Shown here: one piece after another, positions 331 through 14,436 of the stretch
Numbering within the stretch: the first letter of the stretch is position 1
Layout of the letters: each line of letters opens with the position of its first letter
From: Escherichia phage SKA49
DNA: 51,548 nucleotides
Reading direction: 5' to 3' (one strand)
Sequence record: NC_079180.1
Notes under the pieces: generated by a model
Seen by the model: the letters and a program-made list of their open reading frames with translations, nothing else
Database searches by the model: none
What the model was told of the DNA's origin: nothing
Translations under genes and position numbers: made by a program

Positions 331-2445
331 ATGACTAACGAAGAATACCGTGCACTGGCTGCTGATGGCGCTCGCTTGAAAGAAGAAGGCCAAGGTTGGA
401 AAGACGTGCTCGATACGATGGACCGTTGCAACCAGATGGTAGATGAAATCACCTCCGTTACACAAACCGAAACTAAAACCGAAACTAAATTGGAGACTCG
501 CAAAATGACAACTATCTCAACTCAAACTATCAAATCCGTTGTCCCTGCTATCACTGCTCTGGTATATCGTGCCAAAGAGAAACAGAACTACATGCAGCCT
601 CAGACCTGTGCTATTGCTGCTCTTGCAATCTTTAAGATGATGACCTCATTCACTCGTGATGACGTTGTTCCTGCCATTGCGATGGTTGAGCTGGCTTCTG
701 CTTCTATTGCTGATGCCAACCGCTACAACAACGACTTGAAAGCAATGCACTATGTTGACCCAGCTATCAACCTCATTGGTCTGGCTAAGCACTTCGGCTT
801 CATTACCATGAACGAAGACAAGTCATTCCAACAGACTGACACATGGGTTGAACTGGTTACAACCAAAGACACAGCAGTGCCATTCACTGAGCGTGTTACA
901 TCTGAATCTCGTCGCAAGCCTTTCGTTAAAGGTGGCAAAGTTAAGCCATCCAAAACTTTGAAAGCTGCAATCGAATTCCTGCAAGATACTGAGTACCATG
1001 TGGAGACTGAGATGGTTCGCATCATCCAGTCCATGATTGAACAGCGTACTTATGGTGGCTTGCAGATGCCAGAAGCAATCCAGACTGAACTCCATGTTTG
1101 GAACAATGCTGTAGCAATGATGAATCAGGACACACTGTATTCTGACTACTTTGCTGACAACCGTGGTCGCCTGTATCATGTAGCATGTGCTGGTCCTAAC
1201 CCACAATCCTCTGACTTTGCTCGTTGCTTGTATTCTCACAATGTTGAGAACATCGTTAAGAAGTTTAACGAAGATGGTTCTACTACCATTGCATACAACA
1301 TGTTCATGGCAGAGCTGGAAGATATTTCCGGTGGTGAATGGTGCAGTGCTAAACGTCTGACCTATGTTGCTCAGAATCCAGCTGGTTCACTTGCTCGCAT
1401 GATGAACATGCCTAAAGCTGAACGTCCTTCTAAGCCATTCACTTATGTTCGTCTGGCTCTGGATTGGTTCAAGTTTGAGACTACAGGTGAATGCGATTCT
1501 CGTGTAGGCTTTGGCTTAGATGCTAAATGTTCTGGTACTCAATATCTGGCATTCATTGCTGGTAACATGGAAATGGCTCGTGCAACAGGTCTGGTTGATT
1601 CTGAGACTAAAGCATCTGACCCATACCAGTTGAGTCTTCGTGAACTGTTGAAGCTGCTGGACAAGTCTTCAATGAAACCTTCTGTTGAAATCATGGATGA
1701 ATTCTTGAACCCTAAAGCTGGTCGTAAGTTTATCAAAACTCCGTACATGGCTATTCAATATGGTGGTGGTAAAGCTGCATTAACTGGTTCATCTGACTTC
1801 ATTAGCTACATGACAGAAGCGCTCCAGATTCCTATGGAGAAAGCTGAGGCATTTGCTGAACTGTGTGTAGAAGCAATCCATAACGCATTGGGTGCTAAGA
1901 TTAACATGTTCATCGAGAAAGCTGCTGATGCTGCATACAACCGTTGTGTTGAACTCAACAAAGAGTACATCACATATCGTCACACTGATGGTCAGGTTGT
2001 AATGAAGCCTTGCTTCCCATCTCGTGAAATCTGTGAGGCATTCAGCATTCGTGTTGACTCACAAACTCGTGTTATCTTTGGCCAGATTCAGGAGAATAAG
2101 CCTTGGACCATTCGTGAATCCAATCCAACTAAAGAAGAATTCAAGCGTACTTTCGTTGTTAACTACATTCAAGGTATTGACGCATTGGTTGCTCGTACTG
2201 TTGCAGTTAAGGCTAAAGAAGCTGGTCTTCGTGGCTTCACTTCAATCCATGATTGTTTCCGTTGCTGTCTGGCAGATGCTCCACGTATGATGGAAGTTAT
2301 TCGTGCAGCATATGTTGAAATCTTTGTAACCAACAATCAATTCGAGAATCTGTCTAAGCAACTCGGTGGCATTCAGATGTATCATGAGAACATCGTAACC
2401 GAAGAGCTTCTGATGAGCGAACACGCTTACTACTTCTGTCAATAA
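331..2445 (+). CDS. T7-type single-subunit DNA-dependent RNA polymerase (compact, 704 aa)
   Basis: Motif A-like FGLDAKCSGTQYLA, motif B-like GRKFIKTPYMAIQYGGG, motif C TSIHDCF with catalytic Asp; GGAG RBS before ATG. Confidence 0.85.
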   Translation: MTNEEYRALAADGARLKEEGQGWKDVLDTMDRCNQMVDEITSVTQTETKTETKLETRKMTTISTQTIKSVVPAITALVYRAKEKQNYMQPQTCAIAALAIFKMMTSFTRDDVVPAIAMVELASASIADANRYNNDLKAMHYVDPAINLIGLAKHFGFITMNEDKSFQQTDTWVELVTTKDTAVPFTERVTSESRRKPFVKGGKVKPSKTLKAAIEFLQDTEYHVETEMVRIIQSMIEQRTYGGLQMPEAIQTELHVWNNAVAMMNQDTLYSDYFADNRGRLYHVACAGPNPQSSDFARCLYSHNVENIVKKFNEDGSTTIAYNMFMAELEDISGGEWCSAKRLTYVAQNPAGSLARMMNMPKAERPSKPFTYVRLALDWFKFETTGECDSRVGFGLDAKCSGTQYLAFIAGNMEMARATGLVDSETKASDPYQLSLRELLKLLDKSSMKPSVEIMDEFLNPKAGRKFIKTPYMAIQYGGGKAALTGSSDFISYMTEALQIPMEKAEAFAELCVEAIHNALGAKINMFIEKAADAAYNRCVELNKEYITYRHTDGQVVMKPCFPSREICEAFSIRVDSQTRVIFGQIQENKPWTIRESNPTKEEFKRTFVVNYIQGIDALVARTVAVKAKEAGLRGFTSIHDCFRCCLADAPRMMEVIRAAYVEIFVTNNQFENLSKQLGGIQMYHENIVTEELLMSEHAYYFCQ

Positions 2446-3529: not shown

Positions 3530-3717
3530 ACCAAATCTCTGTAAATTCTGTGACAGATTTTAGAGAGATTATGTCTCCAAGCTAATCATTGTAGTTTTTA
3601 GACACTTTGTGTGTCACATATATAGCCTGTGAAAAACGTGTGGTATATTGCTGGATTGCGACGCGCCCACCAGACTAGGAAGTCACTGACGGCGGCACAC
3701 ACAGGAATACTATATAA

Positions 3718-12436: not shown

Positions 12437-12465
12437 GTCGTTTGACGAATCAGAGCAGTTCTGAA

Positions 12466-12898: not shown

Positions 12899-13795
12899 GT
12901 TGCCGATGGCAAACTTGAGAGACTAAGCTAAATCGATCTGGCATGCACTGGAAGTTTCCGGTGCTGCCTTGAACCCATTCCAGAGTGAGTGGGCTTCAAT
13001 TTGTACATAATTCAAACACCAGTGCATGAGCCTTCGACGGAAGGCAATGTTGGGAAATTTGTTGTGTACAAATTGAAGTAGTTTTCTGAGTCTTACGACG
13101 GGCCTAAACTGCCTGGAGTTATTGCGACTGTTTTATTCATTTAAAATAAATGCAAATGATTCTGAAATGCGAGTTGCGGCTTAATTAAATTTAAGTCCTC
13201 TCCGTGGTCTTCCAATCCCACGTAACCAAATTTGGCGCATTGTGGCTTCGAGATGTGATTAATAAATCGGAGCAATAATTAATTTGTATTCTGCGATGCA
13301 AAGCAGGCTTAAGTCCTCCAGTGCGCGTGGGGATGTGACAGAGTACAAACTTAATTATGCAGTTGGATATTTCTAGAGGACGGACGAGCACACTGGAATG
13401 TCTTCAATTGGTTTAGTGTGAGAAGCTATGCCAATTTGAAACGTAACTCCTTGGGGAAGTGCTCCTCTGGATTTCCCTCCACGCAGGAATCTCAAGCCTG
13501 TGGCAGTGACTTCGAAGCTGCACTGCGTAACCTAATTCACCCTAAAGTGAATTGCCCTGAGCATGGAAATAAACTGCTCAAACCGATGGTATCTACAAAG
13601 GTAGATTAAATCAGGTTGCCTGTTGGTACTTGGGTTCAACACCTGCTTGCACTCGCAAAGTAGTGCCTCGTACCTGAGATGAAGTGAGTCGGGACCATCA
13701 ATCCCACGTTATGTCAAAACACAGTAGGCGACTCACGGATTCTACAAGCCTCGCAGTTCGGGAAAACCTGCGTTATCAAAACCCCCCACCTATTT

Positions 13796-13887
13796 GGACG
13801 AGTAGCTCAGAAGGTTTGCATTGTGCTCAGTCAGGTAGAGCAATCTGTTCGACAGATGTGTCGTTGGTTCGAATCCAACCTCGTCCA
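13796..13887 (+). tRNA. tRNA-like element (possible tRNA gene or pseudogene; isotype undetermined)
   Basis: Perfect 7-bp acceptor stem GGACGAG/CTCGTCC, canonical T-arm GTTGG-TTCGAAT-CCAAC, discriminator A; core about 19 nt longer than standard, with duplicated GCTCAG flanking a 20-nt insert. Confidence 0.4.
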
Positions 13888-13917
13888 CCCATTTTCAACA
13901 ATAAACATGGAGTCCTC

Positions 13918-14058
13918 ATGGACATTGATGCACTAGACAATTTGGACTTCGGTGCTGCCGAAGAAGCAATTGAAGAACTCAAGAAAAAGCAGGACGAAGA
14001 AGCAATCGTTCCTGGTGCTGGCGATAATGACTGCTCAAGCGGTGCGTGTGCCATCTAA
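13918..14058 (+). CDS. possible small acidic protein (46 aa)
   Basis: ATG with GGAG RBS 7 nt upstream; C-terminal part of track ORF 13684..14058, whose 5' part overlaps the tRNA-like element. Confidence 0.3.
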   Translation: MDIDALDNLDFGAAEEAIEELKKKQDEEAIVPGAGDNDCSSGACAI

Positions 14059-14066
14059 GGTGATTT

Positions 14067-14303
14067 ATGCAACAGCTTAAATCAGTAATTCTTGGCGTCC
14101 TGACTGCATTTGGTATTATCATTGCAGTGTTCCTCAAAGGCAAAAGCTCAGGCAAAGCCGAGGAGCGTCAGGAAGCCAAAGAGAAGCAATTCGATTCCAT
14201 TAAAGAATCTATCGAGATTAAAACGCATGTTCAGAAAGAAGTGTCTAGCAGTTCTGATAGCAATGTCGATAGTGAGTTGCTCTCAAAGTGGGTTCGTAAG
14301 TGA
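14067..14303 (+). CDS. small membrane protein (N-terminal TM helix, charged C-terminus; 78 aa)
   Basis: AAGGTGA RBS; TM segment SVILGVLTAFGIIIAVFL. Confidence 0.45.
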   Translation: MQQLKSVILGVLTAFGIIIAVFLKGKSSGKAEERQEAKEKQFDSIKESIEIKTHVQKEVSSSSDSNVDSELLSKWVRK

Positions 14304-14436
14304 TTATTGCTTAATTGCACAACCAATCTATTTGGATGTTGCAGAAGTGAAAATCTTATCACGCGAAACCAAAACACAGATTCTAGTCCACAATGAAACG
14401 TGGGCACAAAAGTGTTCTCAACTTACCCGACAGTGA
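14227..14436 (+). CDS. possible lipoprotein (69 aa) overlapping the 3' end of 14067..14303 in another frame
   Basis: Signal-like MFRKKCLAVLIAMSIVSC with lipobox-like IVSC; weak RBS. Confidence 0.25.
   Translation: MFRKKCLAVLIAMSIVSCSQSGFVSDYCLIAQPIYLDVAEVKILSRETKTQILVHNETWAQKCSQLTRQ

Follow-up and report, generated by a model that had tools for sequence, protein, structure and literature searches.

A known tRNA mimic, mascRNA, has a compact anticodon loop; it is matured by RNase P and RNase Z, is given a CCA end and does not become charged with an amino acid (PMC11693755). A TLD-only RNA of mycobacteriophage DS6A was proposed to titrate SmpB (PMC4131195). Phages also carry pseudo-tRNAs, genes that resemble those of tRNAs but contain insertions or deletions, and that standard finders report as aberrant (PMC3185647). 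The "pseudo" tRNAs of Felix O1 are an example. RNAs C and D of T4 are a further example of small stable tRNA-like phage RNAs.

Here we analyzed a tRNA-like element (13796-13887, + strand) of Escherichia phage SKA49 (NC_079180.1), a phiEcoM-GJ1-like (Carltongylesvirus) coliphage; the window is the whole stretch of 51,548 nt. Like mascRNA and menRNA, the element retains the acceptor/T-arm elbow and has an anticodon arm that ends in a compact, non-conserved loop (PMC11693755). The likeness may extend to the way of working, as a tRNA shape lying inside a longer transcript (MALAT1 and MEN-beta for the known mimics) and excised by RNase P. Nevertheless, mascRNA and menRNA are eukaryotic and unrelated in sequence to the phage element, and mascRNA has a reduced D-arm without the linker residues, while the sequence of the phage element contains a full class I core and an enlarged D-loop. 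Compared to the pseudo-tRNAs mentioned above, the damaged parts are pinpointed here and purifying selection on the body is demonstrated; we know of no such demonstration for the Felix O1 and T4 cases. With the TLD of tmRNA and the DS6A RNA the element shares the tRNA shape and, probably, the lack of a decoding anticodon, but it has A3-U70 instead of G3.U70, a 5-bp anticodon-arm stem and a D-stem. The tmRNA families of Rfam did not match the element, and the tmRNA mode of ARAGORN reported nothing.

Anatomy and genomic context

The element matched the Rfam tRNA family RF00005 with 45.2 bits, above the gathering score of 29 (whole-window E = 1.7e-6); ordinary phage tRNAs scored 44-70 bits in a comparable search. 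The match was full-length (model positions 1-71) and assigned the element by covariance score to the class I tRNAs. The first-pass annotation, made from the letters of the DNA, had judged the tRNA-likeness to be beyond chance and had proposed a covariance-model check; this above-threshold match agrees with that judgment. The acceptor stem is perfect, and the T-arm is canonical and followed by the discriminator A, both as described in that annotation (Table 1). The 7-bp acceptor, the 5-bp T-stem with a GTTCRANY loop, the discriminator and the CC(A) tail all correspond to a tRNA, and every pair is standard.

The core is aberrant, as had also been noticed. The stretch between acceptor and T-arm is too long (60 nt, where class I tRNAs have about 41 nt), and GCTCAG is duplicated (13805-13810 and 13825-13830, starts 20 nt apart). 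In the RF00005 alignment a 23-nt insertion follows G18G19 in the D-loop, and 2 nt are absent from the anticodon loop. The D-loop therefore measures 29 nt, and 24-30 nt in relatives, outside the range of about 7-11 nt for tRNAs and the 8-9 nt of a canonical class I tRNA. The best anticodon helix, ATCTG/CAGAT (13843-13847/13853-13857), closes a 5-nt loop, TTCGA, instead of the 7-nt loop that a tRNA has on its 5-bp stem. Minimum-free-energy folds of the whole RNA differed between the insert haplotypes and beat shuffled sequences modestly (z = -2.2 to -2.9), and none of the conclusions here relies on them.

Table 1. Features of the tRNA-like element and its surroundings (positions in the window).
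Feature	Position	Strand	Remarks
Conserved hairpin CGCAG(N11)CTGCG	13752..13772	+	24 nt upstream of the element; context, candidate only
Acceptor stem, 5' strand GGACGAG	13796..13802	+	7/7 paired with 13880-13886; invariant in 25 genomes
U8 A9 linker	13803..13804	+	same in all phage alleles and L028
D-stem, 5' strand GCTC	13805..13808	+	partner GAGC 13838-13841; D-stem in the Rfam alignment; invariant
Expanded 29-nt D-loop	13809..13837	+	AGAAGG (13809-14, A14-G19 register), variable core, second GCTCAG (13825-30), GGTA (13834-37)
Variable insert core	13815..13828	+	two haplotypes; mini-hairpin GCA-TTG-TGC (13818-13826)
D-stem, 3' strand GAGC, and A26	13838..13842	+	invariant; identical in L028
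Capped "anticodon" hairpin	13843..13857	+	5-bp stem ATCTG/CAGAT, 5-nt loop TTCGA (13848-13852)
Class I variable loop GTGTC	13858..13862	+	invariant; identical in L028
T-arm GTTGG/TTCGAAT/CCAAC	13863..13879	+	canonical; sole variation T/C at loop position 60
Acceptor 3' strand CTCGTCC, discriminator A13887, CCC tail	13880..13890	+	discriminator A or G in relatives
46-codon ORF (ORF46)	13918..14058	+	start 31 nt past the element; annotated in relatives

The element lies on the same strand as all other genes and is common to about 25 relatives, in agreement with the conservation check proposed beforehand, and is highly conserved among them. The records of these phages label it as tRNA-Arg (phiEcoM-GJ1, Ecp_YSF and Pel53, in phiEcoM-GJ1 with the GenBank note "may contain an intron"), as a 71-nt tRNA-Arg beginning inside the insert, or not at all. 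The tRNA-Arg locus has already been mentioned in the literature (PMC6266442; PMC8762354), and its presence/absence polymorphism has been described (PMC8762354). The phages PYps3T, 4T and 16T are without the element, and in some relatives the absence is precise. The element is therefore dispensable, and its benefit conditional.

The nearest match to a putative phage-promoter motif, taken from the phiEcoM-GJ1 record, is at 12464. The block around the upstream hairpin (13737-13776) varied in 3 of 40 columns; this hairpin occurs once in the SKA49 stretch and is also kept by PYps3T, a phage without the element. In the same ORF-poor island, 640 nt upstream of the element, lies an RNA module resembling a tmRNA tag (ANDSEMRVAA*), which is unannotated and conserved widely; a tRNA-like domain was looked for inside the module and not found. 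Downstream, ORF46 is coding, as the diversity among relatives was 0.156 at third positions compared to 0.007-0.022 at first and second positions. It had no match in PHROG, and Rz/Rz1-like spanin genes follow on its 3' side. A 124-codon ORF (13684-14058) runs across the element and had been considered non-coding there; codon-position diversity indeed limited coding to its last 46 codons (ATG 13918).

Variation among related phages

Across 25 genomes, 3 of 73 body columns were variable, compared to 9 of 19 columns in the loop and insert core (Fisher p = 1.7e-5) and 24 of 46 third codon positions of ORF46 (p = 1e-9). Diversity was 0-0.02 in the body, 0.18 in the loop (0.184), 0.13 in the insert core (0.128, near neutral) and 0.20 in leader and trailer; leader, trailer and synonymous sites showed about ten times the diversity of the body. 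The three body changes, an acceptor G-C to G.U change (C to T on the 3' side), T-loop position 60 and A/G at 73, are those that a folded tRNA tolerates. In 13 sequences, 99% of the pair cells were paired, compared to 34-38% when the partners were slid, and eight pairs were altered on both sides; the diversity is shallow, with 12 alleles, and the majority of stems show no change at all and are thus uninformative either way. C74 and C75 were retained in 24 of 25 genomes, with A at position 76 in 11 and C in 13. G+1, the U-rich leader, R73 and C74C75 are sequence features that fit maturation by RNase P and CCA addition. The features of an RNase P-processed mimic, namely the acceptor/T-arm elbow, a compact non-conserved anticodon loop, G+1 and an RCC tail, are all present in the sequence.

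This pattern indicates a real, conserved phage gene with a body under strong selection. The even, neutral substitution expected of an unconstrained pseudogene was not found; as the body is constrained while loop and insert change at the neutral rate, a decaying pseudogene was rejected. Of the three possibilities offered by the first-pass annotation (a pseudo-tRNA, a tRNA with an insertion or a tRNA mimic), the insertion holds in the form of the D-loop expansion and the mimic is best supported, given the freely evolving 5-nt loop; the pseudo-tRNA, understood as a decaying pseudogene, does not agree with the pattern of constraint.

The D-loop expansion was 20, 21 or 15 nt long, depending on the phage, and SA91KD has a 6-nt deletion inside it. 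Two haplotypes of the insert core were observed, the SKA49 type TTTGCATT-GTGCTC and the majority type TCTGCTCCAGAGCTT, between which the third pair of the insert mini-helix is swapped (A-U and U-A).

The stem of the anticodon arm was invariant in 13 of 13 sequences, and its loop was 5 nt in all 25 phage genomes. Four loop alleles were found: TTCGA, present in 19 of 25 genomes, TTAGG, TAAGA and TCGAA, the last of which, in TH29, matches TTCGA exactly when reverse-complemented and is therefore an inversion. The central triplets are UCG, UAG, AAG and CGA, so that no anticodon is conserved among orthologues. The ends of the loop are U and a purine in all alleles and are able to pair, leaving a 6-bp stem and a 3-nt loop. 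The closed loop is about 4 kcal/mol more stable than the 7-nt loop formed by opening the closing G-C pair. The arm also contains the heptamer ATCTGTT, the class II pause/termination signal of T7 RNA polymerase. This lead was dropped; the heptamer is lost in two loop alleles, and its genome-wide depletion was weak (4 found, 10.7 +/- 3.6 expected).

Ancestry and a metagenome relative

Without the insert, the element was 79% identical (83% in the core) to a canonical tRNA-Arg(UCU) of Klebsiella phage VLCpiS13b, a relative found by synteny, compared to 46-65% identity to 14 other phage tRNAs. Both have a 7-bp acceptor, U8 A9, the D-stem GCUC/GAGC, G18G19, A26, a 5-bp anticodon stem, a 5-nt variable loop, a canonical T-arm and R73 with a CC tail, and both sit downstream of the same tag-like module. 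The gaps in their alignment are exactly A20 and loop positions 32 and 38; the element differs by lacking these residues and by a loop triplet that is not conserved among its orthologues. In BLAST searches the insert-less element had no match in E. coli genomes, and its phage matches were only generic, about 80% similarity with various tRNAs.

E. coli ArgRS has A20 as its main determinant, and the identity set of bacterial tRNA-Arg comprises A20, C35, U/G36 and A/G73 (PMC9976931). In the element, U follows both GG motifs, and A20 is missing. Taken as an anticodon loop, the TTCGA allele (19 of 25 genomes) would have C35 and U/G36, whereas the three other alleles lack C35; position 73 is A or G.

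The exact 21-mer of the anticodon arm and a gapped pattern, searched in viral, metagenome and genome collections, led to the same phage group and to a single metagenome contig (L028). L028 differs in the acceptor, where both partners are changed in 5 of 7 pairs, and in the T-stem, where this applies to two pairs; its D-stem, A26, anticodon stem and variable loop are those of the coliphage element. A 4-nt GNRA tetraloop (GTAA) replaces its anticodon loop, and its D-loop insert is larger than that of the coliphages and contains a hairpin. With a model built on the phage alleles only, L028 reached 55.8 bits and ordinary phage tRNAs at most 33.1 bits, a score that is partly circular because L028 was located via a 21-nt exact match. 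The proteins encoded next to the L028 element had no relatives among viral contigs; contigs with homologues of its integrase (70-92% identity) share the promoter region and lack the tRNA-like element. A tRNA with a 7-nt loop on the ATCTG/CAGAT stem was not found in the bacterial genomes searched. Other candidates were rejected as chance matches, L025, L029 and L032 in unrelated or coding DNA and L034-L044 from two looser viral scans.

Competing readings and possible role

We consider the chances about even that the element is a former phage tRNA-Arg kept as a non-decoding tRNA mimic that is processed by RNase P and completed with CCA. It probably is not a decoder. Anatomy, conservation and ancestry are demonstrated by the comparisons above; from sequence features we infer its expression, processing, lack of charging and role. 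The RNA would fold into an L-shaped class I tRNA body, be cut by RNase P at G+1, be trimmed, and have its CCA completed at the R73-C74-C75 tail. The anticodon arm would form a closed hairpin with a 5-bp stem (6 bp if the ends pair) and a 3-5-nt loop of arbitrary sequence, and a D-loop expansion of 15-21 nt would be tolerated. The closed, variable loop, the tolerated expansion and the missing A20 suggest selection on tRNA shape and ends, not on codon reading. Two uses of such an RNA appear likeliest. The element might serve as an RNase P-dependent processing or punctuation signal between the RNA-gene island and the ORF46/spanin mRNA, as mascRNA does for MALAT1. However, a pure RNase P signal would not require the conserved D-stem, anticodon stem and variable loop, which counts against this use. 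Alternatively, the mimic might occupy a tRNA-binding host or defence factor.

A serious alternative, though one we rate clearly lower, is a working but odd tRNA-Arg(UCG), in which ribosome binding would open the G-C pair at the base of the loop, so that a 7-nt loop, G-U-UCG-A-C, forms and CGA can be decoded, a codon poorly read by the host. CGA makes up 15% of the Arg codons of SKA49 (7.1 per 1000), about twice the frequency in E. coli, and would be read by the majority allele, which also has C35. The tRNA-Arg label in the records and papers mentioned above, the A/G73 polymorphism, compatible with bacterial Arg identity, and the strong conservation of the body, as in accessory phage tRNAs, point in the same direction. 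The first U and last purine of all four loop alleles are also expected of U33 and R37 in a real anticodon loop, which counts against the mimic. Yet no genome departs from the 5-nt loop, whose opening is costly, G32/C38 can form a Watson-Crick pair, without which the anticodon stem would have just 4 bp, A20 is missing from a D-loop of 29 nt, and the triplet varies at the neutral rate, even by inversion, among near-identical phages. A young pseudogene, a dead tRNA whose conservation only reflects close kinship or recent spread of a cassette, is unlikely. Damage is indeed what the insertion, the shortened loop and the absence of A20 look like, the element is dispensable and polymorphic in its presence (PMC8762354), and the phages diverged by only about 5-15%. 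Nevertheless, variation is heterogeneous within 92 nt, the flanks and synonymous sites are far more diverse than the body, and the few body changes keep the pairing; moreover, alleles recombine freely with their flanks, which makes a single recent sweep improbable.

There is also a small chance that the element is the tRNA-like partner of the tag-like module in a joint, trans-translation-like phage device. The order of tag module and then tRNA-Arg is seen repeatedly, with tRNA-Arg(UCU) about 45 nt after the module in Felixounavirus SP116 and about 250 nt after it in VLCpiS13b, as the Arg-derived element follows it in SKA49, and no tRNA-like domain was found in the module itself. PYps3T, however, has the module without the element, modules in other phages neighbor Leu, Ile or other tRNAs, the G3.U70 required by AlaRS is replaced by A3-U70, and all helices of the element are self-contained. 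A complementarity of 8-9 nt between the SKA49-type insert and the resume-codon region of the tag was rejected, as the tag region is identical in phages with the other haplotype and the pairing does not covary. Removal of the D-loop insert as an intron, leaving a normal tRNA, appears very improbable. It agrees with the GenBank note of phiEcoM-GJ1, and taking out 20 nt between the GCTCAG repeats would restore a textbook D-arm, GCTCAGTCAGGTAGAGC. Twenty nucleotides are far below the size of group I introns, though, no Rfam intron family matched, the insert lies in the D-loop with no bulge-helix-bulge drawable at its junctions, and its length (15, 20 or 21 nt) and sequence drift; the product would still have a 5-nt loop and no A20. 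Moreover, E. coli is not known to possess a tRNA splicing endonuclease. Hardly credible is the type II tRNA-Leu(cag) that ARAGORN reports at 13795-13891, in which the canonical-looking D-arm becomes the anticodon arm (CAG) and ATCTG/CAGAT a long variable arm. A hypervariable loop would be unremarkable on a variable arm. But this fold has about 2 D-stem pairs and an A.A mismatch in the anticodon stem, and leaves GTGTC unpaired after the supposed variable arm; the presence of this class I-like variable loop argues against it, and Rfam aligns the element as class I. ARAGORN calls Leu in 5 of 25 genomes and nothing in 19, and calls SA91KD, whose 6-nt deletion removes CAG, Ser(gct).

As a broader and doubtful proposal, the coliphage element and L028 may belong to an unrecognised class of non-decoding phage tRNA mimics with a class I core, a D-loop expansion containing a hairpin and a 3-5-nt loop capping the anticodon arm. 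Such mimics would derive from the tRNA-Arg that regularly accompanies the previously undescribed tmRNA-tag-like RNA of enterobacterial phages; they would either work together with the RNA island to rescue or tag at the ribosome, or be decoys for tRNA-targeting host defences. In view of the tag-like module, many enterobacterial phages might also disturb or mimic trans-translation.

In databases and papers the locus has been counted as an ordinary phage tRNA-Arg, a tRNA-Leu or nothing, and has been used in statements on codon adaptation. The comparative evidence indicates that the anticodon is not the conserved part of the element. If the mimic is true, tRNA finders would be shown to miss and mislabel such genes, as ARAGORN missed 19 of 25. 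Lytic E. coli phages with natural deletion variants (PYps3T) and four natural loop alleles offer a tractable system, and a selected non-decoding mimic would be among the few cases in bacterial viruses of a tRNA turned into a tRNA-shaped tool.

Fold of the tRNA-like element

Re-reading the sequence recovered every feature described for the tRNA-like element by the first-pass annotation, including a perfect acceptor stem, a canonical T-arm and an overlong core, and each lay where it had been placed. The 5′ part reads GGACGAG-TA-GCTC-AGAAGGTTTGCATTGTGCTCAGTCAGGTA-GAGC-A-ATCTG-TTCGA-CAGAT and the 3′ part GTGTC-GTTGG-TTCGAAT-CCAAC-CTCGTCC-A, followed by CCC. The Rfam tRNA model matched the element from end to end (45.2 bits, gathering score 29, E = 1.7e-6), in agreement with the proposed tRNA-like character; its alignment contains a 23-nt insertion after G18G19 and an anticodon loop 2 nt short. 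No other Rfam family reached threshold anywhere in the window.

ARAGORN also made a call on the element, but as a 97-nt type II tRNA-Leu(CAG) whose D-stem is almost without pairs. This call was obtained in only 5 of 25 orthologues, with no call in 19, and in SA91KD, where a 6-nt deletion takes out the supposed CAG anticodon, it switched to Ser(gct). Because the call is not kept in orthologues, the second, downstream copy has the textbook form of a D-arm (GCTCAGTCAGGTAGAGC), and the ATCTG/CAGAT hairpin lies exactly at the anticodon-arm position, bordered by A26 and by GTGTC as a 5-nt variable loop, the class I fold is the right reading.

Pairs were counted in 12 distinct phage alleles and a distant relative on a metagenome contig (L028). 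In this set 99% of the pair cells of the cloverleaf were paired, versus 34–38% when the partners were slid. Eight two-sided pair changes were observed. Seven come from L028, with five of them in the acceptor stem and two in the T-stem; the eighth affects a 3-bp mini-helix of the insert, which is GCA/TGC in the window type but GCT/AGC in the majority type. In the simplest picture, the D-stem is formed by the first GCTC paired with GAGC, and the D-loop is enlarged to 24–30 nt with a small hairpin; G18G19 may be supplied by the first or by the second GG.

Coordinates of the features (window positions unless another source is named)
Feature	Position	Strand	Remark
tRNA-like element	13796–13887	+	
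ATCTGTT motif	13843–13849	+	covers part of the anticodon-arm stem and loop
Upstream block	13737–13776	+	hairpin CGCAG-N11-CTGCG, about 20 nt upstream of the element
tmRNA-tag-like module	about 12985–13275	+	unannotated
Near-perfect hairpin	12994–13078	+	85 nt, 5′ part of the module
Tag frame	13152–13184	+	10 codons
ORF46	13918–14058	+	acidic, 46 codons, product MDIDALDNLDFGAAEEAIEELKKKQDEEAIVPGAGDNDCSSGACAI
Rz/Rz1-like spanin pair	14067–14303 and 14110–14436		directly after ORF46
20-nt motif AAACATTAGTTGGAWNTGR	249, 2560, 6993, 10333, 10475, 12132, 12464, 20308, 25894	+	
PYps3T junction (L030)	about 1080–1100		element absent
tRNA-like sequence of L028 (Ga0265298_10054731)	about 3576–3674	+	metagenome contig
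tRNA-like genes of Pantoea phage SSEM1 (L053)	about 926–991 and 1163–1231		unannotated

The 5-nt loop occurs as TTCGA (19 genomes), TTAGG (Bp7, JL1), TAAGA (TH26, PYps16N, FXie) and TCGAA (TH29). The TH29 allele equals the reverse complement of TTCGA exactly; it probably arose when the segment flanked by the two perfect 5-bp inverted repeats was inverted. In all alleles the first base is U and the last a purine, which is compatible with U33/R37 and equally with a sixth U-A or U·G pair closing a triloop. RNAfold predicted the triloop with the sixth pair for all four alleles, and a 7-nt loop made by forced opening of a G-C pair would cost about 4 kcal/mol. The motif ATCTGTT, at which T7 RNA polymerase pauses or terminates (class II signal), also lies here, and the phage encodes a T7-like polymerase. 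The window contains 4 copies, with 10.7 ± 3.6 expected; since the TAAGA and TCGAA alleles no longer contain the motif, it is probably coincidental.

L028 differs from the element in its acceptor stem (AGATATA/TATATCT) and T-stem (GCAGG/CCTGC) but shares U8A9, the D-stem, A26, the ATCTG/CAGAT stem and the GTGTC variable loop. A GNRA tetraloop (GTAA) stands at the place of the anticodon loop, and the 39-nt D-loop carries its own GNRA hairpin, CCTC-GTGA-GGGG. L028 reached only 20.8 bits with the Rfam tRNA model and 55.8 bits with a model from the phage alleles alone, a score that is partly circular because the sequence was found via 21 shared bases; the best of 15 ordinary Felix O1-type tRNAs scored 33.1 bits with the latter model. 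A sigma-70-like promoter (TTTACA-N17-TATAAT) lies a few bases ahead of the start of the sequence, which is divergent from the adjoining integrase (tyrosine-recombinase) gene, and ends in a T-run followed by a 78-codon ORF. Contigs with 70–92% identical integrases keep the promoter and lack the element. A scan of metagenomes and 185,579 species genomes, covering loops of 3–9 nt, yielded no 7-nt-loop tRNA with the ATCTG/CAGAT stem. Because only two lineages are involved, a family of the element and L028 is a lead, not a result.

Variation and ancestry

The source phage is a phiEcoM-GJ1-like myovirus (Chaseviridae, Carltongylesvirus). The first-pass annotation had considered the locus very unlikely to be due to chance, and its conservation agrees with this: the element was found in 38 phage records of E. 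coli and Yersinia phages, representing about 25 distinct genomes. Twenty-five genomes were aligned over 900 nt.

Variation in the 25-genome alignment
Region	Columns	Variable	pi
tRNA body (three segments)	73	3	0.000–0.021
5-nt loop	5	4	0.184
Insert core	14	5	0.128
5′ leader	28	13	0.205
3′ trailer	112	18	0.203
ORF46 third codon positions	46	24	0.156

The body differed from loop plus insert core (Fisher test, p = 1.7e-5) and from the third positions of ORF46 (p = 1e-9). Its three changes are an acceptor-stem G-C to G·U, a substitution in the T-loop (position 60) and an alternation of A and G at position 73, all of a kind tolerated by a folded tRNA. The alleles occur in many combinations and are therefore recombining, and a single recent sweep fails to explain the pattern. 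From the sharp split between the body and the loop, insert and flanks, we infer that the body is under purifying selection and that the loop and the insert interior are not.

At the RNA ends, G+1 is invariant and the end of the leader is T-rich. The discriminator is A or G among the genomes; C74 and C75 are retained in 24 of 25, position 76 is A in 11 and C in 13, and the trailer beyond is highly variable. When tRNAs mature in E. coli, G+1 and the RCC tail serve RNase P, and the 3′ terminus is completed or repaired by the CCA-adding enzyme. The end features would fit a processed, CCA-ended RNA.

After removal of the insert, the sequence had no close canonical relative in E. coli, and its BLAST similarity to assorted phage tRNAs was only generic, at about 80%. 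Its ancestry was revealed because the upstream tag module recurs near tRNA-Arg: by synteny, a canonical tRNA-Arg(UCU) was found downstream of the homologous module in Klebsiella phage VLCpiS13b. Its identity to the element without insert is 79% over the full length and 83% for the core, compared to 46–65% for 14 other phage tRNAs. A direct comparison of the two gave E = 7e-6, and the gaps fall exactly at A20 and the loop-flanking positions 32 and 38. Among the identity determinants read by E. coli ArgRS, A20 is the main one (PMC9976931). Because of this closest identity and the gap positions, the element looks like a former tRNA-Arg that lost A20 and 2 nt of the anticodon loop and acquired a D-loop expansion. 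Each of these changes should be harmful to arginylation or decoding; the other parts stay constrained.

Records and papers annotate the element inconsistently. It is a 95-nt “tRNA-Arg, may contain an intron” in the phiEcoM-GJ1 record, a 95-bp tRNA-Arg without intron in the ST32 paper (PMC6266442), and a 71-nt tRNA-Arg starting inside the insert in the Ecp_YSF and Pel53 records; the Mangalitsa paper reported “0 tRNAs” (PMC6753284) and the Yersinia-phage paper “arginine or leucine” (PMC8762354). The latter also reported exactly this gene as missing from PYps3T, 4T and 16T. We confirmed its precise absence from PYps3T, where the flanks are otherwise collinear and the junction reads ...AACCCAC-ATCC-TTAACAAC; PYps23T has the whole element at the same site. 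Short flanking CCAC motifs suggest loss by microhomology deletion. The locus is thus already known as an annotation, but mislabelled or missed, and no description of its anatomy or evolution was found in accessible papers.

The upstream tag-like module and other neighbours

The ORF-poor stretch upstream of the element holds a tmRNA-tag-like RNA module. Its homologue in Felixounavirus SP116 is the tRNA-Ile/tRNA-Arg(UCU) spacer within the tRNA cluster (E = 3e-18, 65% over 270 nt). The frame of the window module, preceded by AAAAUAAAU, reads GCA AAU GAU UCU GAA AUG CGA GUU GCG GCU UAA and specifies ANDSEMRVAA*, which is patterned like the proteolysis tags of tmRNA (ANDENYALAA in E. coli). The stop codon lies in a hairpin, followed by conserved blocks and a hairpin with a GUGAUUAAUAA loop. 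The module's 5′ hairpin, common to Felixounavirus phages, has 17-nt outer arms (−38.2 kcal/mol, z = −6.0 versus shuffles); Loessnervirus copies start instead with GUGGGCUUCUGGAUGAUUCGAAU, resembling the 5′ end of E. coli tmRNA.

Matches were found in 114 records of the phage collection, always in unannotated DNA, including 45–48-kb Klebsiella and Shigella phages and often in tRNA clusters adjoining tRNA-Arg(UCU). The tags are ANDSEMRVAA and ANDNEMRAAA in Loessnervirus, ANDNVFLAVA in Felixounavirus, ANDSEVLMAA and ANDNTFLAVA in Ackermannviridae, ANEEVYLAVA in VLCpiS13b, ANDDVVLMAA in Shigella phage DS8, and ANDSEIRVAA, ANDDTILMVA and ANDAQFLAVA in IMG/VR contigs. The module looks functional because identical tags differ synonymously (e.g., GTT GCG, GTG GCT, GTT GCA), conservation does not extend to the alternative AUG frame, and the hairpin 3′ of the tag frame shows at least five different two-sided changes of its stem around an invariant loop. 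Rfam tmRNA families matched every copy at 15–27 bits, below the thresholds of 47–84. ARAGORN called no tmRNA on module copies but did call permuted tmRNAs in other viral contigs of the same scan, and a search for a tRNA-like domain in the module identified none. PYps3T has the module without the element, and the two are therefore separable. No mention of such a module was found in the literature searched; it may represent a new family of phage ncRNAs with a relation to trans-translation.

Unannotated tRNA-like genes also occur downstream of the tag module in Ackermannviridae (L051, L052) and in a similar RNA island of SSEM1. The minimal RNA in such islands has an acceptor stem, a T-arm and a single hairpin (GGTTGGT...CTCGGTTCGATTCCGAG-GCCGACC-A), and ARAGORN called a 69-nt tRNA-Cys(GCA) there. 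YX22 and cp16 carry a RNA of about 140 nt with paired ends (GCCGTT.../...AAACGGC), a GGGTTCGACTCCC T-arm and then an ACCA end.

The upstream block, with 3 of 40 columns variable, equals the tRNA body in conservation; it is unique in the genome and kept in PYps3T, which lacks the element; it could be a processing site, terminator or promoter. The repeated 20-nt motif is labelled “putative phage promoter” in the phiEcoM-GJ1 record; the ICTV profile gives no identified promoters for Chaseviridae. ORF46 has no PHROG family. Its diversity at third codon positions, compared to 0.007–0.022 at first and second, indicates strong purifying selection.

Possible roles of the element

The first-pass annotation had left a pseudo-tRNA, a tRNA with an insertion and a tRNA mimic side by side. 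Our analysis supports and sharpens this interpretation: judged by its structure, the element is best read as a tRNA-derived mimic of putative function. The data support an RNA of tRNA shape in which selection acts on the body and the ends, not on an anticodon. A working tRNA-Arg(UCG) would agree with the U33-, C35- and R37-like bases of the majority loop and with CGA making up 15% of the Arg codons in the phage; given the altered positions and the variable loop, we consider it unlikely, if with an appreciable chance of being right.

For the tRNA-derived mimic, mascRNA offers the closest parallel in function. This tRNA mimic, whose anticodon loop is compact and not conserved, is cut from a longer transcript by RNase P, gains CCA and is not aminoacylated (PMC11693755). 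All genes of the phage lie on one strand, and the match to the phiEcoM-GJ1 putative promoter motif (AAACATTAGTTGGA...) nearest to the element is at 12464. The 1-kb ORF-poor stretch ends with the element; ORF46 starts 31 nt further on and is followed by the spanin genes. One plausible role, by analogy, is that processing at the element would detach the RNA upstream of it from the mRNA that follows; another is that the element may sequester a tRNA-binding host or defence protein.
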